Below are positions 1,266 to 15,479 of a stretch of DNA of 32,000 nt, piece after piece. This DNA is from Methanocaldococcus jannaschii DSM 2661 (GTDB taxonomy: Archaea > AGJL01 > Methanococci > Methanococcales > Methanocaldococcaceae). Position numbers and translations under genes: made by a program. Location: positions 503,581 through 535,580 of the forward strand of contig NC_000909.1 in the NCBI RefSeq assembly GCF_000091665.1, read 5' to 3'. The notes under the pieces were generated by a model that had not been told where the DNA came from, made no database searches, and worked only from the letters and a program-made list of their open reading frames with translations. Every line of letters begins with the position of its first letter. The stretch's first letter is position 1.

Positions 1266-1643
1266 ATGTCTCAAAGTATTGAGGATTATTTAGAGAGGAT
1301 TTATTTATTCATAAAAGAAAATAACAGACCAATAAAAACAACTGAACTGGCTAAATTGTTAAATATAAAGCCATCAGCAGTTACAAATATGGCAAAAAAA
1401 CTGCATAGATTGGGTTATGTTAATTATGAGCCATATATTGGGATAACTTTAACTGAAAAAGGCATTGAAGAGGCTAAAAAAATATTGGACAAACATAAAA
1501 CAATTAAAATATTTTTAGTGGAGTTTTTAGGATTGGATGAAAAAACAGCATCTGAAGAAGCTTGCAAATTAGAACATGCATTATCAGATGAAATATTAGA
1601 GAGATTAAAAATTTTTATGGAGAAATTTAAAGATAAAGTTTAA
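1266..1643 (+). CDS. DtxR/MntR/IdeR-family metal-dependent transcriptional repressor (HTH plus dimerisation domain)
   Basis: The N-terminus SIEDYLERIY...TTELAKLLNIKPSAVTNMAKKLHRLGYVNYEPYIGITLTEKG matches the DtxR-type winged HTH. The gene is divergent from feoAB. Confidence 0.9.
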   Translation: MSQSIEDYLERIYLFIKENNRPIKTTELAKLLNIKPSAVTNMAKKLHRLGYVNYEPYIGITLTEKGIEEAKKILDKHKTIKIFLVEFLGLDEKTASEEACKLEHALSDEILERLKIFMEKFKDKV

Positions 1644-3683: not shown

Positions 3684-4536
3684 GTTAAAATCAGACCGTT
3701 TCGGAATGGAAACTCTGATTTTAACTACCGAAATTTTTATATATGGATTTATATATAAATTGTTAAAATCAGACCGTTTCGGAATGGAAACTTTTATCCC
3801 TCCAAAAAATAAAAGAATAAATAAAAGTTAAAATCAGACCGTTTCGGAATGGAAACAGTGTAAATGAAGATTTCTTAACTATATTGCAACAAGCGTTAAA
3901 ATCAGACCGTTTCGGAATGGAAACAATTCTCTACAGAAACTAAATACAAATGACTTGTTAAAATCAGACCGTTTCGGAATGGAAACCAAAACATGAGTGC
4001 AGAAGAGGCAAATAACATTCTACAAGTTAAAATCAGACCGTTTCGGAATGGAAACCCCCCGAAAAGGTTGGAAACTCAGCAAAACTAATCGTTAAAATCA
4101 GACCGTTTCGGAATGGAAATATGGAACAAGAATGAGAATCTCTGGAGTGGATGTTATTAAAGTGTTAAAATCAGACCGTTTCGGAATGGAAACCTTATTG
4201 CCTCTTCAAATCTATAAACTATAGCATCAACACCGGTTAAAATCAGACCGTTTCGGAATGGAAACTTTTTATTTTAATAATGTTTCTATCATCTTAATTT
4301 TGAGTTAAAATCAGACCGTTTCGGAATGGAAACTTTTTATTTTAATAATGTTTCTATCATCTTAATTTTGAGTTAAAATCAGACCGTTTCGGAATGGAAA
4401 CAACTAAATCTAATTGAGATTTTTTTGGTTCATGTCTATTAAAATCAGACTGATTCGGAATGGAAACATAGTTCTTTTTCCTTCTACCTCCCAAAATTGT
4501 TTATAATTAAAATCAGACCTCTAAGAGGATGAAAAC
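3684..4536 (+). CRISPR. CRISPR array with 13 repeats and 12 spacers; consensus repeat gttaaaatcagaccgtttcggaatggaaac (30 nt)
   Basis: Repeats start at 3684, 3762, 3827, 3895, 3957, 4026, 4091 (ends ...aaat), 4164, 4236, 4304, 4372, 4438 (attaaaatcagactgattcggaatggaaac) and 4506 (attaaaatcagacctctaagaggatgaaaac, 31 nt). Spacer lengths are 48, 35, 38, 32, 39, 35, 43, 42, 38, 38, 36 and 38 nt. Orientation is inferred from the leader position and from the degenerate distal repeats. Confidence 0.97.
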
Positions 4537-4814: not shown

Positions 4815-6239
<1,425 letters not shown>

Positions 6240-6278
6240 AATCTTTTATTTTTTATTTTTAATTTTTAGGGTGTTAAT

Positions 6279-6539
6279 ATGGATGAAAATATTAAAAAGG
6301 CAGAGTATTATTATAAAAAAGGTGTAGAAGTTGGAAATAAAGGAGATGTAGAAAAAGCCTTAGAGTATTTTAACAAAGCAATAGAATTAAACCCATTTTA
6401 TAGAGATGCATGGTTTAATAAAGCTTTAGCTCTGAGAATTTTGGGGAGGTATGAGGAAGCAAGGGAGTGTTTTTTTAGAGGTTTAGCTGTTGAAAAACAT
6501 CTGACGCATAAAAAATATAATTCTGATGATGAAAAATGA
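6279..6539 (+). CDS. Small TPR-repeat protein
   Basis: Two TPR-like units (AEYYYKKGVEVGNKGDVEKALEYFNKAIELNP / FYRDAWFNKALALRILGRYEEARECF). An SD agggtg lies upstream. Confidence 0.7.
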   Translation: MDENIKKAEYYYKKGVEVGNKGDVEKALEYFNKAIELNPFYRDAWFNKALALRILGRYEEARECFFRGLAVEKHLTHKKYNSDDEK

Positions 6540-6574
6540 ATAAACTTCTTTATTTTATTTTAAAATTTATCGAT

Positions 6575-6634
6575 ATATTTAAATCTTTTTTAAAAATATT
6601 AAAATGTATTAATTAATCGAAAGGTATAAATATT
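6575..6634 (+). promoter_or_regulatory. Conserved 60-bp promoter-proximal element, copy A (ends in TATA-like tataaatatt)
   Basis: Sequence atatttaaatcttttttaaaaatattaaaatgtattaattaatcgaaaggtataaatatt. It matches copy B at 54/60 positions and copy C at 53/60, with no gaps. It ends 46 nt before the ATG at 6681. Confidence 0.6.
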
Positions 6635-6680
6635 ACCTAATATATTTTTACTCATAAGCGGAAAATAATGAGGTGGGGAT

Positions 6681-7250
6681 ATGAATCCAGAGATGATTAT
6701 GGAGATGATGAATTCAGACATTGCTAAAGAAATGGCTCCTAAAATGATGCCAAAGATGATGCCTTTAGCTTTAGAGAAGTTTTTGCAATATATTCCTGAA
6801 AATGAAAGAAAGGAGTTTATAGCAAGAATTGTTGATATAATTGTAAGCAAGGATGAGAATAAAGAAGTTTCTGCTGAATATTTGGATATGTTTGAAGCCC
6901 TACTAAATGTTAAAGGTTTAAAAATCCATTCAAGAGGAGGAAAAGGGGCAATAAAGGAAAAAATATCCCCAATGGATTTGTTTTTAGCTGGGCTTTGTGG
7001 ATGTGTTTGCATAGCTGTTGGTAATACATTAAAAGCTAACAACATAGATGCTGAGATAAAAGTAGATGGAAAGGTTGAGAAATCCTTTGAAGAAGGAAAG
7101 ATAAAGAAGGTAATTATAAACATCTATGTAAAAGTTGATGGAGACATAGACAAAGAGAAATTAAAGAAATTAGTTTTAGAAGGCTCAAAAAAATGTTTAA
7201 TAAGCAACTCTATAAGCTGTGAGATTGAGAAGAATGTCATCCTTGAATAG
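6681..7250 (+). CDS. OsmC/Ohr-family (peroxiredoxin-like) protein with a Met-rich N-terminal extension
   Basis: The C-terminal half resembles OsmC domains, with two Cys regions (LAGLCGCVCIAVG... and KKCLISNSISCEIE). An SD gaggtgggg lies upstream. Confidence 0.65.
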   Translation: MNPEMIMEMMNSDIAKEMAPKMMPKMMPLALEKFLQYIPENERKEFIARIVDIIVSKDENKEVSAEYLDMFEALLNVKGLKIHSRGGKGAIKEKISPMDLFLAGLCGCVCIAVGNTLKANNIDAEIKVDGKVEKSFEEGKIKKVIINIYVKVDGDIDKEKLKKLVLEGSKKCLISNSISCEIEKNVILE

Positions 7251-7283
7251 GATTTGTCTCATTTGAATAACTAAGGGATATTT

Positions 7284-7565
7284 ATGTGGCCTTGTCCAAT
7301 AGGTTTTGGAATGGTTGGATTTCCAATTTTTGGATTTTTCTTTATGGGATTGTTTTTTGTTATTGGAATAGCAGTTTTTATAATAATTATTATTACCATT
7401 GTGGATATTTTAAAGAGGGATGCTTTAGATACTCTTGAAAAAATCTTATGGATATTGGTTGTCTGGTTTTTAGGGATAATTGGAGCAATAATTTACTATC
7501 TGTTATCTAAAAGAAACTCTAAGAGTAAAGGAGATAACAATGGCAAAAATATTGGTAGTAACTGA
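7284..7565 (+). CDS. Small two-TM membrane protein (PLD-N-terminal/short C-terminal-domain-like)
   Basis: Hydrophobic segments are followed by D...[27 protein letters not shown], a pattern seen in PLDc_N-type small membrane proteins. Confidence 0.55.
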
Positions 7566-8229
7566 TGGAGCTTATGGATACAGGATTAAAGGAACAATAA
7601 ACTCCTTTGGAAAGAAAAATAAATTCATTGGAATCTATAAAATCAACAAACCAGATGATTTGATAGTTGATGATATAGAGTTTCCAGATGAGTTGTTGGA
7701 AAAAATTAAAGAGGCTGATATTTTATTGCTTTATACTCAACATCCAGACAACACCTATTATCTCTGCTATGAGGCAAGGAGATTGAATAAAGATATTGCC
7801 ATAATCGTTGCTACGTGGAGTGGAGAGGGAGAGAAGAAGGAGCTAAAGAAGTTTGATGCTATATGTCCAGAAGAGATGTGTTTGTTGGATGAAAATGAGG
7901 TTGGAAGCTTGATAGATAAATATCCAAAATTAAAAGAATTTTTAGAAGAATTTGGAACTCCAAAGGTTAAGGTTTATGTTAAAGACAACAAAGTTATAGA
8001 TGTGGAGGTTTTAAGAACATCTATCTGCGGTTCAACCTTATTTATGGCTAAGCTGATGAAGGGAATGGAGGTTAATGATATTGAAGAATTTGCCAAAAAA
8101 TCTGCCATGCTAATTCAAAGATATCCATGCGTTGCTGGGAAGATAAAAATTTTTAGAGGAGATTGTAGAAAGCAAAAAGCATTAAACATACACAAAGAGG
8201 CTGTTTTAGAAGGGATAATTTTCATTTAA
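7540..8229 (+). CDS. Conserved archaeal hypothetical protein (possibly the DUF166/COG1810 family)
   Basis: An SD aaaggag lies upstream and the gene overlaps its upstream neighbour by 26 nt (operon). The family assignment is from memory only. Confidence 0.5.
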
Positions 8230-8289
8230 ATATTTAAATCTTTTTTAAAAACATTAAAATACATCAATTAATCGAAAACTATAAATATT
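8230..8289 (+). promoter_or_regulatory. Conserved 60-bp promoter-proximal element, copy B
   Basis: Sequence atatttaaatcttttttaaaaacattaaaatacatcaattaatcgaaaactataaatatt. It starts immediately after the stop codon at 8227-8229 and ends 51 nt before the ATG at 8341. Confidence 0.6.
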
Positions 8290-8340
8290 TGTTGTGTATT
8301 TTATTTTACCCATAAGTGGATATTTTAAAAGAGGGAGAGC

Positions 8341-9384
8341 ATGTTAGAGGCGTGTGAATCAAAATTAGACATAATTAAAAACTTCGTCCCTTCATGGTTT
8401 GCTGCAGTGATGGGAACTGGAATCTTAGCAGTTGATAGCTTACTATATTCATCTTATTTGCCAATTTTAAAAGATGTTGCAGTTGGATTGTTTTATTTCA
8501 ATGTTTTGTTGTTCTTTATATTCTTAGTTCCCTGGGTTTTAAGATGGATTATGTTCAAAGATAATGCTTTAGCTGATTTAAAGCATCCAGTTTTGAGTGC
8601 CTTTTATCCAACCATTGCAGTTAGTTGTTTAGTTTTAGGAGCTGACTTTATAAATATAGGGCATAATATGTTTTGGGGTGGAGTATTTTGGACTCTTGGT
8701 GCTATTGGCATGTTTTTATTCAGTTTGATAGTTCCGTTTTATATGTTTAAGTCTGAAAGTATAAAGTTAGACCATGTTAATCCGGGTTGGTATATTCCAC
8801 CTGTTGGTTTGATAGTTATTCCAATTGCCGGGAGTTTGATAATGCCTCATTTAACTGGAGTTTGGCATGAATTAACAGTTCTTATTAACTACTTCGGTTG
8901 GGGGGCTGGATTTTTCTTATATTTAGCTTTATTAGCAGTGGTAATTTATAGGTTTATACTGCATCATCCTCTACCCTCAGCAATGGCTCCAACAGTATGG
9001 ATTAACTTGGGGCCAATAGGGGCTGGAATTGTTGCCTTAATAAACATGGTTAATAACTCCCCATTCATAACAATAAAAGAGCCGTTTTATATCTTCTCCT
9101 TCATATTCTGGGGGTTTGGATTATGGTGGAGTTTGATGGCTATAATAATGACTCTCTACTATGTTAAAAAGCTAAAACTTCCTTATGCAATGTCATGGTG
9201 GGCATTCATCTTCCCATTGGGAGCTTATGTTGCATCATCACATTTAGTTTATAAAATATTCAAATTTAGTATAATCGATTACATAGGCTTTGGATTATAC
9301 TGGTTGTTATTCTTCTTCTGGGCGATAACTTTAATAAAAACAACAAACAAAGTTTATACTGGAGAAGTGTTTAAAGGTCATTAA
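8341..9384 (+). CDS. TDT-family (TehA/Mae1/SLAC1-like) anion / C4-dicarboxylate transporter
   Basis: About 10 predicted TM segments. The N-terminal FVPSWFAAVMGTGILA motif is characteristic of TehA-type transporters. Confidence 0.85.
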   Translation: MLEACESKLDIIKNFVPSWFAAVMGTGILAVDSLLYSSYLPILKDVAVGLFYFNVLLFFIFLVPWVLRWIMFKDNALADLKHPVLSAFYPTIAVSCLVLGADFINIGHNMFWGGVFWTLGAIGMFLFSLIVPFYMFKSESIKLDHVNPGWYIPPVGLIVIPIAGSLIMPHLTGVWHELTVLINYFGWGAGFFLYLALLAVVIYRFILHHPLPSAMAPTVWINLGPIGAGIVALINMVNNSPFITIKEPFYIFSFIFWGFGLWWSLMAIIMTLYYVKKLKLPYAMSWWAFIFPLGAYVASSHLVYKIFKFSIIDYIGFGLYWLLFFFWAITLIKTTNKVYTGEVFKGH

Positions 9385-9400
9385 TAAAAGGGTGAGTGTT

Positions 9401-9880
9401 ATGTATAAAAAGATTCTTTATCCAACTGACTTCTCTGAAACTGCTGAGATTGCATTAAAGCATGTTAAGGCGTTTAAAACTCTTAAGGCGGAAGAAGTTA
9501 TTTTACTGCATGTTATAGATGAAAGAGAAATCAAAAAGAGAGATATATTCTCTCTACTCTTAGGTGTTGCAGGTTTGAATAAATCAGTTGAGGAGTTTGA
9601 AAATGAGCTAAAGAATAAACTTACTGAAGAAGCTAAAAATAAAATGGAAAATATCAAAAAAGAACTTGAAGATGTTGGATTTAAAGTTAAGGATATTATT
9701 GTTGTAGGAATTCCTCATGAAGAAATTGTTAAAATAGCTGAAGATGAGGGAGTAGATATAATTATAATGGGTTCTCATGGAAAAACAAACTTAAAAGAGA
9801 TATTACTTGGTTCAGTTACTGAAAATGTCATTAAAAAATCAAACAAACCAGTTTTAGTTGTTAAAAGAAAAAATAGCTAA
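9401..9880 (+). CDS. Universal stress protein (UspA family, ATP-binding type)
   Basis: YKKILYPTDFSE... and the C-terminal GSHGKTNLKEILLGSVTENVIKKSNKPVLVV (the G-2x-G-9x-G(S/T) ATP motif). The track ORF starts at GTG 9392, which lies inside the SD gggtga (9389-9395). ATG 9401 is the better-spaced start. Confidence 0.93.
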   Translation: MYKKILYPTDFSETAEIALKHVKAFKTLKAEEVILLHVIDEREIKKRDIFSLLLGVAGLNKSVEEFENELKNKLTEEAKNKMENIKKELEDVGFKVKDIIVVGIPHEEIVKIAEDEGVDIIIMGSHGKTNLKEILLGSVTENVIKKSNKPVLVVKRKNS

Positions 9881-10686
9881 ATAAATTCTTTTAATTTTTC
9901 ATAAAGCTCTTTTATTGATTCTGATACTTTGCTATTACTATCACAAAGCAAAATCTTATTTGCAATCAATTTTGGAACATCAAAATCAAAAGGAATTGAA
10001 TGGAATATTTTGAATGGGTAGTTAATGTTATTCATGCCCTTTTTATTCTCAACAATTAAATATTCAACATTAAAGAAATTTAGTGTTTCTATTAATCTTA
10101 AACAATCATTAACACTTGATTTTGTTGGCTCAACTATACATAAAGCTAAATCAACATCTTTAACCGTTGAGATTAATGGACATCCAACTCCTGGAGGGCC
10201 ATCTATAATCCCCAACTCTGCTTTATATTTTTTGGCATGGTTTTTTATATGCTCAATAATCTTTCCACTTCCACTCTCACCAACCTCTAACTCTCCCCAA
10301 ATTAACGGAAAGCCAACAAAACCTTCGTAGATATAACCACTTTCACGTTTAATTGGCTCTATTGCATCAAATTCACAGATTAGCTCACAAGCTCCACAAC
10401 CTTCACACAGTATTGGATTTATCTTAAAATCCCCTATAGCGTCAAATTGACAGACATCTAAGCATTTTCCACATCTTATGCAGTCATCATTTATCTCATA
10501 TATCTCACGATAGATAACTTCCAACAATTTTTTATCTTTAACATCAAACATTAAGTTAAAGTTTGGTGCATCAACATCACAATCTAATGCTACAATATTA
10601 AACTCTTTTGAAAACAGCTTAGCTAAGGATGTTGAAATAGAAGATTTTCCTACTCCTCCTTTCCCTGAGATAATTGCTATCTTCAT
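9877..10686 (-). CDS. MinD/Mrp-superfamily P-loop ATPase with an inserted 2x[4Fe-4S] ferredoxin domain
   Basis: Deviant Walker A SGKGGVGKSS, plus two CxxCxxCxxxC motifs (CIRCGKCLDVC and CEGCGACELIC). The start is moved to MKIAIISGKGG (ATG 10686), 2 nt after the upstream stop. The track start is 10707. Confidence 0.85.
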   Translation of the reverse strand: MKIAIISGKGGVGKSSISTSLAKLFSKEFNIVALDCDVDAPNFNLMFDVKDKKLLEVIYREIYEINDDCIRCGKCLDVCQFDAIGDFKINPILCEGCGACELICEFDAIEPIKRESGYIYEGFVGFPLIWGELEVGESGSGKIIEHIKNHAKKYKAELGIIDGPPGVGCPLISTVKDVDLALCIVEPTKSSVNDCLRLIETLNFFNVEYLIVENKKGMNNINYPFKIFHSIPFDFDVPKLIANKILLCDSNSKVSESIKELYEKLKEFI

Positions 10687-10688
10687 TA

Positions 10689-11489
10689 TTATCCCCAAAT
10701 AATCCAATTTGCAATCTCTTCTATATAATTTCTCAAATCATTATATTTTAAAAAACTCTCTCCTTTGCAGTAGCATTCAACTATTCTCTTATCATAAGGA
10801 ATTTTGAAGTTATAACCAATTTTTAAATCACTGATTCCATATCTATTCAAAACAATCTTGTATGGAATATTTAGCTTTTCCACAACCTTGATTATCCTCT
10901 TTGCATCTGAAACACCAAAAGGTGTTGGCTCTGTAACTATAAGGACTTTATCTGCGTTAATTAATGCTCTCACAACGTTACAGTGAGTTCCTGCGGCAGT
11001 ATCTACAATGTTAATTTCGCAGTTTTTTGATAAACCATATTTCTTTGTTTCAGTTACGATTTTTGCTGTCTTTCTCTCTCCCAAGTTTGATTTTCCTACA
11101 ATTAGATATCCATTATCAAATTTTTTCTCGTAAATCTTTCCAATGCTCTTCTTTTTAAATGTTATATTGCTATTTATTCCACAAGCTTTACAGCCACTGC
11201 ATAAATCCTCAATAAATATTAATTTATCTCCAACTTTTAATAAAGCTCCTTCTTTACATACATTATTATAGTTGTAAGTTTTACCCTCCTCTATATTTGG
11301 AACTTCAATAAAAACTTCTCTTGCTAAGAATAAATCCTCACAACCTGTTAAGTAGGGAAGATTTGGCGTCTCAACATCACAATCTATTAAAGCAGTTTTA
11401 TAATTCTCAATAAAATAAAAAAAGAGGTTTGCTGACAAGGTAGATTTTCCAGTCCCTCCTTTACCACCAGTTACTGCAACAATCATCAT
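10689..11489 (-). CDS. MinD/Mrp-superfamily P-loop ATPase paralogue with a degenerate Cys insert
   Basis: Walker A TGGKGGTGKST and only one CxxCxxC motif (CSGCKAC). The track start at 11498 is TTG. ATG 11489 or 11486 (MMIVAVTGG) is more likely. Confidence 0.85.
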   Translation of the reverse strand: MMIVAVTGGKGGTGKSTLSANLFFYFIENYKTALIDCDVETPNLPYLTGCEDLFLAREVFIEVPNIEEGKTYNYNNVCKEGALLKVGDKLIFIEDLCSGCKACGINSNITFKKKSIGKIYEKKFDNGYLIVGKSNLGERKTAKIVTETKKYGLSKNCEINIVDTAAGTHCNVVRALINADKVLIVTEPTPFGVSDAKRIIKVVEKLNIPYKIVLNRYGISDLKIGYNFKIPYDKRIVECYCKGESFLKYNDLRNYIEEIANWIIWG

Positions 11490-11490
11490 C

Positions 11491-11820
11491 TCACTCAAAT
11501 TTTTCTAATTTTCCTTCTAAAAATAGCTTTATGCATTCATCAATAGATGTTGTATTAGCTTTATAAACATCAATGCCAAGCTGTTTAAAAACACTGTATG
11601 CCTTAGGTCCTATATTTTGGACTATTATGGCATTTACACCCATATTTGCAATTAATGAGGCTGATGTAGTTCCAACTCCATGCATGCCATTTCTTGCAGT
11701 GTTTTCAATGATCTCTTTATTTTTTATCTCTCCATTTTCAATCTCTACAATCATGAATTTTTCACACCTTCCAAAGTGTGGAGATAGCCGATTGTTATCT
11801 ATAGGTAGAGCTATTTTCAT
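11491..11820 (-). CDS. NifX/NifB-C-terminal-like (dinitrogenase FeMo-cofactor-binding fold) small protein
   Basis: MKIALPIDNNRLSPHFGRCEKFMIVEI... is typical of the NifX/NifY/NafY-type domain. An SD GGTGA (complement of 11826-11830) lies 5 nt before ATG 11820. The track start is 11847. Confidence 0.8.
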   Translation of the reverse strand: MKIALPIDNNRLSPHFGRCEKFMIVEIENGEIKNKEIIENTARNGMHGVGTTSASLIANMGVNAIIVQNIGPKAYSVFKQLGIDVYKANTTSIDECIKLFLEGKLEKFE

Positions 11821-11907
11821 TAATTTCACCTTTAAAATTTTCGTCATTCTTCAATATTACAACGCTTATGCGAGAAAATATATAAAATTTACTGAAATAT
11901 TATCCAA

Positions 11908-11967
11908 ATATTTGAATTCTTTTTAAAAATATTAAAATATATCAATTAATCGAAAACTATAAATATT
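11908..11967 (+). promoter_or_regulatory. Conserved 60-bp promoter-proximal element, copy C
   Basis: Sequence atatttgaattctttttaaaaatattaaaatatatcaattaatcgaaaactataaatatt. It matches copy B at 55/60 positions and ends 143 nt before ATG 12111. Confidence 0.6.
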
Positions 11968-11988
11968 ACTTTTAAAACCCAATAATAT

Positions 11989-12098
11989 TTAGTGTCTTTC
12001 AAAACATTTTGTAATACCTTAAGGTATTAATGAACGCCTTCCTTTAGGAAGGTGTTCAAATTTTCCTTAATAAATTTATTAATTTTGAAAGACACTAA
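11989..12098. repeat. 110-bp element bounded by perfect 16-bp terminal inverted repeats and containing three internal hairpins (MITE-like insertion or structured 5' leader)
   Basis: ttagtgtctttcaaaa (11989-12004) is the exact reverse complement of ttttgaaagacactaa (12083-12098). Internal hairpins: 12012-12018/12023-12029; 12031-12042/12047-12058 (12 bp including one G-U pair, loop ttta); and the palindrome ttaataaatttattaa at 12067-12082. Confidence 0.6.
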
Positions 12099-12110
12099 TT
12101 GGTGAGGGTT

Positions 12111-12359
12111 ATGGTAGTGATAAGGATATTCGGAACGGGCTGTCCAAAATGTAACCAAACATACGAGAACGTTAAAAAAGCAGTAGAAGAACTTGGCATA
12201 GATGCAGAGATTGTTAAAGTTACAGATGTCAATGAGATAGCTGAATGGGTTTTTGTTACACCTGGAGTAGCATTTGACGATGTAATTGTCTTTGAAGGAA
12301 AAATTCCCTCTGTTGAGGAAATTAAGGAAGAGTTAAAAAGTTACTTAGAGGGGAAATAA
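12111..12359 (+). CDS. Thioredoxin-fold 'redox-active disulfide protein 2'-type small protein (CPKC active site)
   Basis: MVVIRIFGTGCPKCNQTYENVKKA... is the typical N-terminus of this family. An SD ggtgagg lies at 12101-12107. The track start at 12099 is TTG. Confidence 0.8.
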   Translation: MVVIRIFGTGCPKCNQTYENVKKAVEELGIDAEIVKVTDVNEIAEWVFVTPGVAFDDVIVFEGKIPSVEEIKEELKSYLEGK

Positions 12360-12745
12360 TGAAAGTGGCAATTATCGCATGTCAAAAAATGGTTGAAATG
12401 GGATGTCCTGGGAAAGAGGCATGCGTATCTTGCTTTAAAGCAATAAATGAGAAGAGTGGAGCTTTTGAAAGATACAAAGATGTTGAGTTAGTTGCATTTA
12501 CAACCTGTGGGGGTTGTCCTGGAAGGAGATTTCCAATGAGAGTAAAGCTATTAAAAACTGCTGCTGGAGCTGAAGCTATTCATATAGCAAACTGCACCTT
12601 CTTACAGCCAGAATGCCCATACATAAACTTTGATGAAATCTGTAAGAAGTTGATGGAAGAGTTGGAGATTCCAATTGTATTTGGAACTCATACATTGGTT
12701 AAGAAAGGAGAAGTTGTTTGCACCTGTGGAGACAATAAGGAATAA
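12359..12745 (+). CDS. CGGC-domain protein
   Basis: Contains the TTCGGCPGRR motif and several additional Cys residues. Its ATG overlaps the upstream stop (ATAATG junction), which suggests translational coupling. Confidence 0.75.
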   Translation: MKVAIIACQKMVEMGCPGKEACVSCFKAINEKSGAFERYKDVELVAFTTCGGCPGRRFPMRVKLLKTAAGAEAIHIANCTFLQPECPYINFDEICKKLMEELEIPIVFGTHTLVKKGEVVCTCGDNKE

Positions 12746-12811
12746 CCCTATATTTATTTTTATAAATATTTTGATTAATTAACTCAAATTTATAGATTAT
12801 GTGGTGAAAAT

Positions 12812-12985
12812 ATGATTGTTTGGAACTTAATCTGTCCAAAGTGTGGAAAGAGGTTGAGATATAAGGTAGATGTTTGCCCGTGCATGGCTTCTGAGGTAGA
12901 GCTTCCAAACTGCCCAGATTGTGGAGAAAAGATGGTTCATGATTATACTTCATTAAAAGGAAGAAGGAGAATTAGGAGGGGATGA
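12812..12985 (+). CDS. 57-aa zinc-ribbon protein with a basic tail (not in the ORF track)
   Basis: Sequence MIVWNLICPKCGKRLRYKVDVCPCMASEVELPNCPDCGEKMVHDYTSLKGRRRIRRG*. An SD gtggtga lies at 12801-12807. The stop TGA overlaps the permease ATG (ATGA at 12982-12985). Cys pairs are CPKC, CPC and CPDC. Confidence 0.6.
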   Translation: MIVWNLICPKCGKRLRYKVDVCPCMASEVELPNCPDCGEKMVHDYTSLKGRRRIRRG

Positions 12986-14079
12986 AAATGGATGTTATGA
13001 GCTTTATAATGAACATTATTAATGTTATGATAAACACAATCATCGATTATTTAAATGTAAATAGAGTCTTAGCCTTATTGATGGCTTTCTTAATGGCTGG
13101 AGGCATTGCTTCAATGATTAACAAGAACTTTATTATAAAATATTTCGGTTCAAACACACCAAAATACATATCCTATACTGTAGCTGCTGTTAGTGGTAGC
13201 TTATTAGCTGTCTGTTCTTGCACTATCCTTCCATTATTTGCCAGTATTTACAAAAGAGGAGCTGGAATAGGGCCAGCAACAACATTCTTGTTCTCTGGGC
13301 CAGCAATAAATGTTTTGGCTATATTTTACTCAGCGGCATTGCTTGGATGGGACATTGGATTTTTAAGGGCTGTGTTTGCAGTAGTAGTCTCAATACTTAT
13401 TGGTTTATCAATGGAGATAATATTTAAAAGCCATGAGAAAAAGAGAGCTTTAAGAGTCCCAAAGGCAGATAAAATATCAGATAGGCCTCTATATCAAACA
13501 ATAACATTCTTTGCTCTGCAGTTTATCATGTTGTTGGTAATTACCGCCTCACCCAAGCTGTTTCCAACGTTATCAATGCCTCTATACGATGGATTTTTAT
13601 TAAAGCATCTGCTATTTATAATACTTGGGATTATCTTGGCTGTAACAACAAAAATCTGGTTTAAAGATGAGGAGATTAAGAACTGGCTCAGAGAGAGCTT
13701 TACACTGCTAAAGATTGTCTTTCCACTGCTAATTATTGGAGTTGCCATAGCTGGAGCTATTAAGGCAATTATCCCACCAAGTTATATAGCAACCTATGTA
13801 GGAGGAAACTCCATAACTGCCAACTTTATTGCCTCATTTATTGGAGCTTTGATGTATTTCGCCACATTAACAGAAGTGCCAATTATAAAGGCATTGATGG
13901 AGCTTGGTATGGGTGTAGGGCCGGCAATGGCTCTGCTGTTAGCTGGACCAAGTTTGAGTATTCCAACAGTCTTAACCATCTCAAAAGTCTTAGGAAAGAC
14001 GAAGGCTTTAACATATTTGGGTTTAGTTGTTATATTCTCAACAATATGTGGCTATATAGCTGGAATAATCCTCAGATAA
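12982..14079 (+). CDS. COG0701/DUF318-type permease (ArsP-like family)
   Basis: Polytopic membrane protein with a vicinal-Cys motif AVCSCTILP in an early TM segment, as I recall for ArsP-type permeases. Its genomic context (thioredoxin-like and CGGC genes) is typical for this family. Confidence 0.8.
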   Translation: MKMDVMSFIMNIINVMINTIIDYLNVNRVLALLMAFLMAGGIASMINKNFIIKYFGSNTPKYISYTVAAVSGSLLAVCSCTILPLFASIYKRGAGIGPATTFLFSGPAINVLAIFYSAALLGWDIGFLRAVFAVVVSILIGLSMEIIFKSHEKKRALRVPKADKISDRPLYQTITFFALQFIMLLVITASPKLFPTLSMPLYDGFLLKHLLFIILGIILAVTTKIWFKDEEIKNWLRESFTLLKIVFPLLIIGVAIAGAIKAIIPPSYIATYVGGNSITANFIASFIGALMYFATLTEVPIIKALMELGMGVGPAMALLLAGPSLSIPTVLTISKVLGKTKALTYLGLVVIFSTICGYIAGIILR

Positions 14080-14098
14080 GATAATATTTGGTGAAGAA

Positions 14099-14716
14099 AT
14101 GAAAAAATTAGCTTTTTTAATACTTTTAATTGTATTTTCTAATTTATCATTAGTAAATGCTATAGATGACAATATCTCAAATTACAGCAAAGAAATTAAT
14201 GAACTTACTGTAAAATTAAAAGAATTAGAGAGTAAAAATCCAAACGATGAGAGGATTGAAGAATATAAAGAGAAACTAAAACAATTGATAGAGAAACAGC
14301 ATGAATTAAAATCTCAAAATCTAAAATATAATGAAACTTTGGCATATATCCAAAGTGAAGAGTATTGGAAAATGCAGGAAGAGATTTGGGAATATAACAA
14401 TAAGGTTATGAAATGGTTTATTGCTATCTCAATCTTAATTTTAGGGATAATTTTAGCTACATTATGGATTCTTAGAAAAGATAAGTTTTTGTTATTCTTG
14501 GCAATATTTGGGTTGATAGTCCCATTCTTACAATTTAAAATTCCGAATTGGTTATTTAATATCTTAGCACTGCCTTTATTTGTCTATATTAAATTTATCG
14601 TTCCCGAATGCGCAGAAGGAAGCTTTTACTACAGCCCTTTAATAACTATACCAATCTCAATGTATGGATGGATATTAATTGGTTTGGCAGTTAAATTTAT
14701 AATAAAAAAGTATTAA
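14099..14716 (+). CDS. Hypothetical membrane protein (signal peptide, coiled-coil segment, three C-terminal TM helices)
   Basis: An SD tggtga lies upstream, 19 nt after the permease stop (same operon). The N-terminus is hydrophobic, followed by a K/E-rich helical region. Confidence 0.6.
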   Translation: MKKLAFLILLIVFSNLSLVNAIDDNISNYSKEINELTVKLKELESKNPNDERIEEYKEKLKQLIEKQHELKSQNLKYNETLAYIQSEEYWKMQEEIWEYNNKVMKWFIAISILILGIILATLWILRKDKFLLFLAIFGLIVPFLQFKIPNWLFNILALPLFVYIKFIVPECAEGSFYYSPLITIPISMYGWILIGLAVKFIIKKY

Positions 14717-14720
14717 AAAT

Positions 14721-14891
14721 TTATAACTCTTTTTTAACCTTCTCATTTAATTCTTTTAATTTGTTGTATAGCTCTTCGTAATCCTTAGTTTCTAAGCCAA
14801 GTTCTTTTAATTGGTTTAGTATAGCTTCAAAATGCTCCTCTGTATGATGTAAAGTATGAAGAAGCTTTTTTATTAATTTTTCCCTTTCCAT
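14721..14891 (-). CDS. 56-aa helical His-rich hypothetical protein (not in the ORF track)
   Basis: Sequence MEREKLIKKLLHTLHHTEEHFEAILNQLKELGLETKDYEELYNKLKELNEKVKKEL*. An SD GGTGA lies 4 nt upstream of the ATG (complement of 14896-14900). Confidence 0.4.
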   Translation of the reverse strand: MEREKLIKKLLHTLHHTEEHFEAILNQLKELGLETKDYEELYNKLKELNEKVKKEL

Positions 14892-14981
14892 ATTTTCACC
14901 AGTTAGTTATTTATACCCAACAATATAAACTAATGTTATCCAAAGTATATAAATGTTATTAAATTTTTGAGGGATAGTATT

Positions 14982-15479
14982 ATGCAAATGTGTGAGTTAT
15001 GCGGAAAGCTTACAGATAAGCTTTACAAGGTAATTATTGAAGGCTCTGAAATGAATGTCTGTAAAGAGTGTGCTAAATTTGGCAAAAGTCCAAAAACATA
15101 TTCAAGATTAGGTAAAAAAACTATAATAGGAAAAGGAACAATAACTACTAATAAACAAGTTAAAAAGCCTATTAAAAGAAGAAGAGATATATTTGATACT
15201 TTACCAATGTTAAGAGAGGATTATGGGGATGTTATTAGAGAAGCAAGAGAAAAGAGAGGTTTATCAATAGAAGAACTTGCTAAAAAACTTAAAATGAAAG
15301 CAAGTACTTTACAAAAATTTGAAAGGTATGAGTTAGAACCAAATGAAAAAGAAATTAAAATATTAGAGAAAGAGTTAAAAATAAGCTTAACTGAAAGTAT
15401 TGGGGAAGAAACTTCATATTATGGTGGTAGAGATGAAGATGGATTTACATTAGGTGATTTCATTAAAATTAAGAAATAA
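14982..15479 (+). CDS. mbf1: Archaeal MBF1 (multiprotein-bridging factor 1): N-terminal zinc ribbon plus C-terminal XRE-type HTH
   Basis: CELCG...CKECAKFG zinc ribbon, and an HTH segment [36 protein letters not shown]. The track start at 14967 is TTG. ATG 14982 follows the TATA-like agtatataaatg at 14944-14955. Confidence 0.85.

Follow-up and report, generated by a model that had tools for sequence, protein, structure and literature searches.

A conserved 60-bp promoter-associated module precedes stress-type operons in Methanocaldococcus jannaschii and other Methanococcales

The stretch of DNA analysed here (hereafter the window) comprises 32,000 nucleotides of the Methanocaldococcus jannaschii DSM 2661 genome (assembly GCF_000091665.1, contig NC_000909.1, positions 503,581 to 535,580 of the forward strand) and holds the genes MJ0568 to about MJ0600. 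Among these are three operons of redox- or stress-type genes, each preceded on its own strand by one copy (A, B or C) of a 60-bp element, which an earlier note on this DNA had taken for a shared promoter plus operator module (Table 1). The coordinates and ungapped identities given in that note proved exact on recount (A/B 54/60, B/C 55/60, A/C 53/60), the blocks it had called invariant across the three copies are real (ATTAAAAT, AATTAATCGAAA and TATAAATATT), and its gene calls for the three operons are right by Pfam and NCBIfam. Within the 32 kb, searches with each half of the element, allowing up to three mismatches, found matches at A, B and C only, all on the + strand, and 0 matches in 100 dinucleotide-preserving shuffles; repeat-finding recovered the same family (D4). 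The edges of the module are sharp, since the in-register identity of the flanks drops to chance within a few bases on both sides. Copy B begins directly after the stop codon of MJ0575 (8227-8229), and copy C is divergent from the MJ0580-MJ0578 operon. The distance from the end of the element to the start codon is 47 nt in A, 52 nt in B and 144 nt in C, where 108 nt of the leader are a species-specific insertion. An Rfam scan of positions 6000-15000 returned no relevant RNA in the element or the leaders.

Table 1. Features of the window that concern the 60-bp module, with neighbouring features. Coordinates are those of the window; element positions are counted from position 1, which is 6575 in copy A.
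Feature	Coordinates	Strand	Description
Copy A, 60-bp module	6575-6634	+	Ahead of MJ0573 (OsmC-like), MJ0574 (PLDc_N) and MJ0575 (DUF166); nhmmer E=7e-12
Copy B, 60-bp module	8230-8289	+	Ahead of MJ0576 (SLAC1/TehA) and MJ0577 (Usp)
Copy C, 60-bp module	11908-11967	+	Ahead of MJ0581 (thioredoxin-like), MJ0582 (CGGC), a Zn-ribbon gene and MJ0584 (ArsP-type permease)
Distal quasi-palindrome, element positions 1-33	A 6575-6607; B 8230-8262; C 11908-11940		Dyad at position 17; putative operator
Proximal box ATyAATTAATCGAAA, element positions 34-48	A 6608-6622; B 8263-8277; C 11941-11955	+	
TATA box TATAAATA, element positions 51-58	A 6625-6632; B 8280-8287; C 11958-11965	+	
Predicted transcription start site (23 +/- 2 nt rule)	A 6654-6658; B 8309-8313; C 11987-11991		
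Start-site-proximal motif ACnCATAnGnGnAAAAT	A 6650-6666; B 8308-8320	+	
Operon A	6681-8229	+	OsmC-like protein with Met-rich N-terminus 6681-7250; PLDc_N small membrane protein 7284-7565; DUF166 7540-8229
Operon B	8341-9880	+	SLAC1/TehA (TDT family) transporter 8341-9384; Usp MJ0577 9392-9880
Operon C	12111-14079	+	MTH895/ArsE-family thioredoxin-like protein 12111-12359; CGGC-domain protein 12359-12745; 6-Cys Zn-ribbon 12812-12985; ArsP_1 permease with CSC motif 12982-14079
MJ0578-MJ0580 operon	9877-11847	-	Two MinD/CbiA-type ATPases (one with a ferredoxin insert) and a NifX-like Nitro_FeMo-Co protein
Putative TATA box of the MJ0580-MJ0578 operon	~11880-11887		~21 bp from the start of copy C
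MJ0568	1266-1643		125-aa DtxR/MntR-family metal-dependent repressor (Fe_dep_repress and Fe_dep_repr_C), 5 kb upstream of copy A
108-bp insertion	11990-12097		In the MJ0581 5' leader, at the predicted start site of copy C
CRISPR array	3685-4466		12 repeats of ~30 nt, GTTAAAATCAGACCGTTTCGGAATGGAAAC, the last degenerate

Scanning species-representative genomes for the exact core AATTAATCGAAANNTATAAATA gave 23 loci. Seven of them, all from Methanococcales, also share the upstream 36 bp; the other 16, from bacteria and other organisms, share the searched core only and are chance matches. The same scan returned nothing from M. jannaschii, M. fervens or M. villosus despite exact matches in all three, their genomes being absent or masked, so that it cannot count the copies of the source genome and the lack of a hit does not mean the lack of a copy. 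For a broader comparison, orthologous loci were gathered via homologues of MJ0573 and MJ0584, supplemented by one metagenome scan with a pattern of the upstream half. Over the gathered loci, an nhmmer profile identified 38 distinct copies, coming from at least 10 Methanococcales species in four genera and from vent metagenomes. The sources in Methanocaldococcus are M. jannaschii, sp. 16A, M. fervens (4 copies), M. indicus (2) and M. villosus; those in Methanothermococcus are sp. Ax23 (2 copies), M. okinawensis (2) and M. thermolithotrophicus, together with two SCGC single-cell genomes; and further copies come from Methanotorris formicicus, Methanococcus aeolicus (2 copies) and many vent-metagenome contigs. 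None of the 38 copies needs a gap to align, and 36 of them were placed in one alignment. In a 35-copy profile, mean identity to the consensus is 0.88 over the 60 bp versus 0.46-0.53 in the 20-30 bp flanks, with a weak upstream extension of the module of ~10 bp (identity 0.65). For 20 copies whose genomes are named, comparison between genomes gives an average agreement of 48.3/60 positions (minimum 43/60), and comparison within a genome one of 52.1/60. Promoters of the same type are alike across genera, as in the Zn-ribbon/permease promoters of Ax23, M. aeolicus and M. okinawensis, and the encoded proteins are 54-86% identical across the named genomes. This pattern of conservation in the module and its flanks indicates that the non-coding DNA of the module has probably been held under long-term purifying selection rather than recently copied. 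A motif that stands ahead of several operons and is kept at orthologous promoters amid non-conserved flanks is also what is expected of a regulon. A degenerate copy (nhmmer E about 0.5) was noticed in M. thermolithotrophicus (L029, 16082-16141), within a ~800-bp stretch without a convincing open reading frame; it may be what remains of a former copy, or it may drive an unannotated RNA.

The search of related genomes, which the earlier note had called for, also revealed an exclusive association with one gene set. All 38 copies lie 20-175 nt from the start codon of a co-oriented gene, a distance that fits the short 5' untranslated region expected downstream of a core promoter, and every significant copy stands upstream of and on the same strand as a gene from one of six families: Met-rich OsmC-like proteins, SLAC1/TehA transporters, ferredoxin-like proteins of 123-131 aa, radical-SAM/SPASM proteins of 466-472 aa, MTH895/ArsE-type thioredoxin-like (Trx-like) proteins, and Zn-ribbon proteins with ArsP-type permeases. 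Genes for DUF166, PLDc_N, CGGC and Usp proteins come next within the same operons. The module precedes OsmC-like genes in Methanocaldococcus (sp. 16A, M. fervens, M. indicus and M. villosus), in M. aeolicus and in metagenome contigs; it precedes SLAC1 genes in M. fervens, in Methanotorris formicicus and in many metagenome contigs. Ahead of Trx or Zn-ribbon/permease genes it occurs in M. fervens, M. aeolicus, M. okinawensis, Methanothermococcus Ax23 and SCGC AD-155-M21. The operons form a cluster in Methanocaldococcus; the OsmC operon and the permease operon are widely separated in M. aeolicus and M. okinawensis, both with the module. The earlier description of a "local regulon" is supported as far as the regulon is concerned, but the regulon is not merely local, because dispersed operons in other genera carry the module as well. 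A search for an M. jannaschii homologue of the ferredoxin-like regulon member returned none. In M. fervens (L024, 9575-9920), a module copy abuts a ferredoxin-like gene that is without its first ~40 codons and in which a 62-aa C-terminal open reading frame is called, a hint that the repeated module has been a site of rearrangement or deletion.

Outside the Methanococcales, too, these families are linked. In Thermococcus radiotolerans (L067, 12.4 kb), genes for a SLAC1 transporter (55% identical to MJ0576), a NifX-like protein, a ferredoxin-like protein and a radical-SAM/SPASM protein lie within 10 kb, in a cluster that also includes two TauE exporters, SufBC-like genes, an ArsR-like gene (112 aa, Met-rich N-terminus) and a TrmB-like gene (155 aa); the locus may be of use in working out what the genes do and which family the regulator belongs to. 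One cluster in Methanosarcina mazei holds permease, Trx_3, DGC, Usp and SBF genes. Since the linkages recur in Thermococcus and Methanosarcina, they independently support a shared biological process.

Turning to the anatomy of the module, its 3' end matches what is known of M. jannaschii promoters, which have the TATA consensus TWTATATA and a spacing of 23 +/- 2 nt between TATA box and transcription start site (TSS) (PMC2699501). The box TATAAATA fits this consensus at 7/8 positions and is invariant in A, B and C, as expected of a core promoter; the copies of Methanothermococcus and Methanotorris use the variant TTTAAATA. The B recognition element (BRE), taken as in PMC2699501 to be the 9 nt before the TATA box, occupies positions 40-48 (AATCGAAAn) and is purine-rich, with the canonical core CGAAA. 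The earlier note had placed a TATA box at the very end of the element and had called 60 conserved bp far more than a core promoter needs. The TATA box is indeed present, but it is TATAAATA at positions 51-58 with the CGAAA of the BRE before it, and only ~45 bp go beyond the requirements of such a promoter. In 131 M. jannaschii promoters that were mapped and surveyed, no conserved element was seen upstream of the BRE (PMC2699501), so these ~45 extra bp are specific to the module.

The BRE is overlapped by a 12-bp palindromic box, TC(A/G)ATTAATCGA, at positions 35-46, which in several copies is the perfect palindrome TCGATTAATCGA. The proximal box is the part of the module with the highest information (2.9 bits at C44, 2.7 bits at G45 and 1.6 bits at C36), and C36 and C44-G45, the sole conserved G/C positions, form a symmetric box over the BRE. 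The 33 bp upstream are an AT-only quasi-palindrome with the family consensus ATATTTAAATATTTTT-T-AAAAATATTAAAATAT. A symmetry scan of the position weight matrix put the best dyad centre at position 17, around which 15/16 pairs are symmetric in the 35-copy consensus (equalled by 9/5000 shuffles) and 13/16 in each of A, B and C (reached by 2-5% of shuffles). Dyad symmetry of the kind expected of an operator is thus present, as moderate evidence given that the sequence is AT-only. The palindrome can be read equally well as two 12-bp boxes ATATTWAAATAT (positions 1-12 and 22-33) with centres 21 bp apart. The variable columns (11, 13, 17, 21, 32-33 and 49-50) coincide with the dyad centre, with a symmetric pair (13/21) or with the junctions between the parts.

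Downstream of the module, the earlier note had seen a weak similarity that continued in all three copies. It holds for A and B (ACTCATAAGCGGA at 6650 and ACCCATAAGTGGA at 8308) but not for C, where ACCCAATAA is unconvincing. The similarity between A and B is offset by 4 nt relative to the TATA box and recurs in the OsmC and SLAC1 orthologue promoters of other species. There, the motif ACnCATAnGnGnAAAAT is found in OsmC- and SLAC1-type promoters of several species (orthologous promoters at L003, L024, L025, L031, L033, L041 and L042) and is missing from the Trx, permease and Fer4-type promoters. It is partly palindromic in several copies (CACATATGTG-like). The motif could act as another operator, located at the start site, or belong to a conserved mRNA 5' end.

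Taken together, the gap-free copies, their presence in four genera, the same six gene families and the background-level flanks support the shared promoter plus operator module of the earlier note. We consider it likely that the 60-bp module is a core promoter fused in fixed register to a putative operator and that it defines an orphan regulon, the module presumably being bound by a dedicated transcription factor. Each 60-bp copy would then be a complete, portable archaeal promoter with a built-in operator. Its 3' third would act as a near-consensus core, composed of the BRE AATCGAAA and the TATA box TATAAATA, with the start predicted ~23 nt downstream, and to this core would be fused, without any gap, the 33-bp quasi-palindrome, centred ~63-65 bp upstream of the start, and the 12-bp box TCAATTAATCGA over the BRE. 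A sequence-specific factor, probably of the winged-helix type and binding as two dimers or a higher oligomer, would control the access of TFB/TBP to BRE and TATA box. In this way the OsmC/DUF166, TehA-Usp and Trx-CGGC-Zn-ribbon-permease operons would be switched together, and other species would add ferredoxin-like and radical-SAM genes to the set. The layout resembles that of the archaeal regulators Ptr2, LysM and Ss-LrpB, whose dimer site is held within narrow limits a few bp ahead of the BRE, with more sites 2-3 helical turns away (PMC2995911).

As to the sign of the regulation, we lean, with slightly less than even confidence, towards repression by occlusion of the BRE that would be relieved by the signal; activation is possible as well. 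Repression is suggested by a BRE and TATA box close to consensus, by the overlap of the conserved box with the BRE, together with a permease promoter from an M. okinawensis metagenome-assembled genome (L017) that keeps just the proximal box and BRE/TATA, and by the orthologous M. mazei operon, in which two perfect 20-bp palindromes flank the TATA box. Several observations weigh against this lean or against the promoter-operator interpretation as a whole. Most of the operator lies upstream of the BRE, for which the usual archaeal rule of thumb favours activation. The near-pure A/T composition makes the palindrome of any single copy marginal, at 13/16 pairs and 2-5% of shuffles. No regulator gene is consistently linked to the module across the Methanococcales loci and the M. 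mazei cluster examined, and the text of the Zhang 2009 paper on M. jannaschii TSSs does not mention these genes. Literature searches by locus tag (MJ0573 to MJ0584), for regulon or motif work in Methanococcales and for expression data yielded nothing pertinent, and no published description of the 60-bp module was found.

The same anatomy might instead serve an activator, namely an Lrp-like or other oligomer that would occupy the two phased AT boxes and the BRE-proximal box and recruit TBP/TFB, in the manner of Ptr2 on the M. jannaschii rb2 and fdxA promoters and of CopR on copper-induced promoters of Pyrococcus. We regard this as rather doubtful. An operator that lies upstream of and abuts the BRE would suit an activator, the gap-free register of the 38 copies fits the "highly constrained" position of activator sites (PMC2995911), and the 21 bp from centre to centre of the two 12-bp boxes correspond to two helical turns; besides, the motif through which CopR controls a metal-detoxification regulon lies immediately before the BRE (PMC7830388). 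Yet CopR targets have weakened core promoters, whereas a BRE and TATA box as close to consensus as those of the module should not need help, and the distal palindrome on which the oligomer would sit has been lost from the L017 permease promoter, which kept the core. Nor is there a match to the Ptr1, Ptr2 or CopR consensus. It is quite improbable, in our judgement, that the module has no dedicated regulator and that its upstream 45 bp act as a structural enhancer (through TpA flexibility, bending, histone exclusion or positioning, or TBP-like sites) or as an oligo-T terminator or insulator that forms a cassette with the promoter against read-through. Conservation is base-specific at nearly all positions and not merely compositional, even though the sequence is AT-only with TnAn blocks every ~10-11 bp and its boxes ATATTTAAAT resemble the TATA variant TTTAAATA of some copies. 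Moreover, the module is confined to one functional gene set instead of highly expressed genes in general, and mapped M. jannaschii promoters are without such an upstream element (PMC2699501). The position of copy B directly behind the MJ0575 stop codon and its T6 run would suit a terminator, but a terminator or insulator as the main function of the central T-run was rejected because the run is broken in many copies (ATTCTT, ATACTT, ATATTT).

A mobile or dispersed repeat, either miniature inverted-repeat transposable element (MITE)-like or a "mobile promoter," that spread recently or was homogenised by gene conversion and whose association with genes is incidental appears very improbable. It would account for the module standing ahead of non-homologous genes, for copies within a genome being slightly more alike than those between genomes (52.1 versus 48.3 of 60) and for the ferredoxin-like gene with a truncated 5' end that abuts the M. 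fervens copy, a sign that recombination may have occurred at the repeat. The copies, however, show no target-site duplications and have unrelated flanks, contrary to what is expected of MITEs; they are always oriented, and spaced from the start codon, as promoters would be; promoter types are conserved between orthologous genes of four genera; and no module match was found in viral contigs. The generic dispersed repeat that the earlier note had named as a possible refutation was not seen in ~250 kb of Methanococcales loci, and in the complete genomes of sp. 16A and Ax23 exact-core matches occur at regulon clusters only. What the within-genome likeness and the truncated M. fervens gene do suggest is occasional recombination between module copies.

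We also compared the putative promoter-operator module with known systems. Ptr2, of the Lrp/feast-famine regulatory protein (FFRP) family, activates the rb2 and fdxA promoters of M. jannaschii, its targets being small redox proteins (PMC2995911). The module resembles the Ptr2 upstream activating sequence, from the same organism, in that the sites lie just upstream of the BRE at a constrained distance and that two sites are phased by whole helical turns: as in Ptr2/Lrp-type placement, the proximal box abuts or overlaps the BRE and box 1 and box 2 are 21 bp apart. Unlike the sites of Ptr2, with the consensus GGACGA[AAA/TTT]TCGTCC, and of Ptr1, with the consensus TACGC[AAT/ATT]GCGTA (PMC2715240), the module copies have no GC-containing half-sites (13-15 bp, 5-3-5 form), and in contrast to FFRP sites the palindromic boxes are even-numbered and the core promoter is near consensus. 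CopR of Pyrococcus furiosus, which combines an Lrp-type helix-turn-helix (HTH) with a TRASH copper sensor, uses a semi-palindromic motif directly upstream of the BRE and has an extended phased footprint (PMC7830388). Shared with CopR are several promoters with a semi-palindrome upstream of the BRE, a presumed detoxification role and divergent promoter pairs that may be served by one operator. In contrast, the CopR motif TTNNCAWWWTGNNAA is absent, no copy has a CA-WWW-TG core, the module has no linked copR or copA homologue, and CopR targets have C-enriched, weakened TATA boxes, unlike the core of the module. Because the consensus sequences of Ptr1, Ptr2 and CopR fail to match any copy, membership in these systems is unsupported.

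The usual control of ars-type genes is by a metal-released repressor. Like ArsR/SmtB-controlled ars-type operons, operon C pairs an ArsP_1 permease (CSC) with a TIGR00412 MTH895/ArsE protein. Unlike in ars operons, no arsR gene is linked in the window or in the Methanococcales loci L024-L030, L065 and L066, an ArsR-like gene being linked in T. radiotolerans only; the operator of the module is far longer than the 12-2-12 site of ArsR; and the regulon also has OsmC, DUF166, TehA, Usp, ferredoxin-like and radical-SAM genes. The M. mazei operon has an orthologous gene set (ArsP_1, Thioredoxin_3, the CGGC-like DGC and Usp) and, like the operons studied here, AT-rich palindromic operators integrated with the core promoter. 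Here the likeness ends, since the 60-bp module is absent and the TATA box is flanked by 20-bp palindromes of the form ATTTCAAA(A/T)ATA(A/T)TTTGAAAT. At L064 4907-4965, the perfect 20-bp palindromes ATTTCAAAATAATTTGAAAT and ATTTCAAATATATTTGAAAT flank the TTTTATATA box. This looks like a different operator, with a repressor-type layout, on the same kind of operon. Matus-Garcia et al. are said to have described, in 2012, putative mobile promoters, that is, homologous promoters ahead of non-homologous genes. The module is similar in that one promoter sequence is reused before unrelated genes in one genome; it differs in that its copies are ancient and are kept at orthologous genes across genera and in one functional gene set, and no link to an insertion sequence or virus was found.

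The sole obvious specific regulator in the window is MJ0568, and its own promoter is without a copy of the element. Its neighbourhood speaks against it as the regulator of the module, as the adjacency is not syntenic in M. fervens. Other candidates were likewise rejected: aMBF1 (MJ0586) is a general factor and is adjacent in Methanocaldococcus only; the HTH-ferredoxin gene beside the M. okinawensis cluster belongs to the fwd operon; and the ArsR- and TrmB-like genes of T. radiotolerans have no homologue in the gathered Methanococcales loci. An EarA-type TACATA site was ruled out, since positions 32-33, which would correspond to it, vary more than any others in the element.

The downstream genes offer some hints at the signal. 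In operon A, the OsmC-like protein is MJ0573. In operon B, the SLAC1/TehA transporter scores 446.8 bits with TIGR00816, above the cutoff, and the Usp protein is the crystallised MJ0577 (PDB 1MJH, full-length match). In operon C, the thioredoxin-like protein has a CPKC motif in a thioredoxin fold and belongs to Thioredoxin_3 in Pfam, with 85.1 bits for TIGR00412 versus a cutoff of 62. The permease of this operon matches PF03773 (ArsP_1) with E=2.8e-98 and is nearest to the SaoE and SO_0444 Cu/Zn efflux models, with scores below both cutoffs; the SaoE/SO_0444 metal-efflux families serve here as a comparison (preprint 10.1101/2022.07.06.499078). A DUF166 paralogue in M. maripaludis is needed, together with CooC2, for the function of carbon monoxide dehydrogenase/acetyl-CoA synthase (10.1101/2024.03.05.583561). 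From this content, comprising the CPKC thioredoxin fold, the CGGC protein, the 6-Cys ribbon, the ArsP/SO_0444 permease with its CSC motif, the Met-rich OsmC-like protein, TehA and DUF166, it is tempting to speculate that the signal may be a thiol-reactive stress, caused by a soft metal, a metalloid or a chalcogen oxyanion, or a related redox stress; we put this forward as a possible but tentative suggestion. The earlier guess of a redox, chalcogen or metalloid role was reasonable and is somewhat strengthened by the family assignments and by the linkage in Thermococcus and Methanosarcina.

The divergent MJ0578-MJ0580 operon gives weak MrpORP/NifX matches and resembles the genes of the Desulfovibrio orange-protein (MrpORP) complex; its arrangement is conserved in M. 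fervens. Given the closeness of its putative TATA box to copy C, it is a possible additional target that would share the copy C operator. On a bolder and unlikely reading, the module would mark a stress regulon that is deeply conserved in hyperthermophilic and thermophilic Methanococcales and has so far gone unrecognised, covering OsmC-like, DUF166, radical-SAM/SPASM, ferredoxin-like, TehA-Usp and Trx-CGGC-Zn-ribbon-ArsP genes and possibly the orange-protein-like MJ0578-MJ0580. Its factor would come from a family new to metal(loid), chalcogen or redox sensing in archaea, and its operator would be welded to the core promoter in a unit that could be copied ahead of new genes.

To our knowledge, very few archaeal regulons have been defined, and almost none in M. 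jannaschii beyond that of Ptr2. A regulon-defining promoter-operator module is a known kind of feature, of which this is a new example and not a categorically new one. Its value is that it offers a route, open to direct testing, to an archaeal regulator and to what several uncharacterised families do: the module is a phylogenetically footprinted 60-bp bait for finding its regulator, and the gap-free register over four genera is a natural experiment on operator-to-BRE spacing in archaeal regulation. It also ties DUF166, CGGC, Met-rich OsmC-like and 6-Cys Zn-ribbon proteins to ArsP/SO_0444-type efflux and to TehA, links that point to the handling of thiophilic metals and metalloids in vent methanogens. 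For the genetic systems of M. jannaschii and Methanococcus, the module could be a compact inducible promoter. If it were only a variant of a strong constitutive promoter, it would be of minor interest.

Two further features of the window were noticed. The 108-bp insertion in the MJ0581 leader has perfect 15-bp terminal inverted repeats (TAGTGTCTTTCAAAA ... TTTTGAAAGACACTA), ATT on both flanks and two internal hairpins, and folds as RNA with -44.7 kcal/mol (z = -8.25). Neither M. fervens nor a close metagenome relative (L038) has it in the orthologous leader. Rfam and viral contigs gave no match, and neither the window nor the gathered loci contain a second copy. Unlike the 60-bp module, the insertion fits the description of a MITE, and it looks like a MITE-type element that gives the regulated transcript a long structured leader. 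The second feature is an array of clustered regularly interspaced short palindromic repeats (CRISPR) upstream of copy A, in which two consecutive spacers, at 4266-4303 and 4334-4371, are identical.

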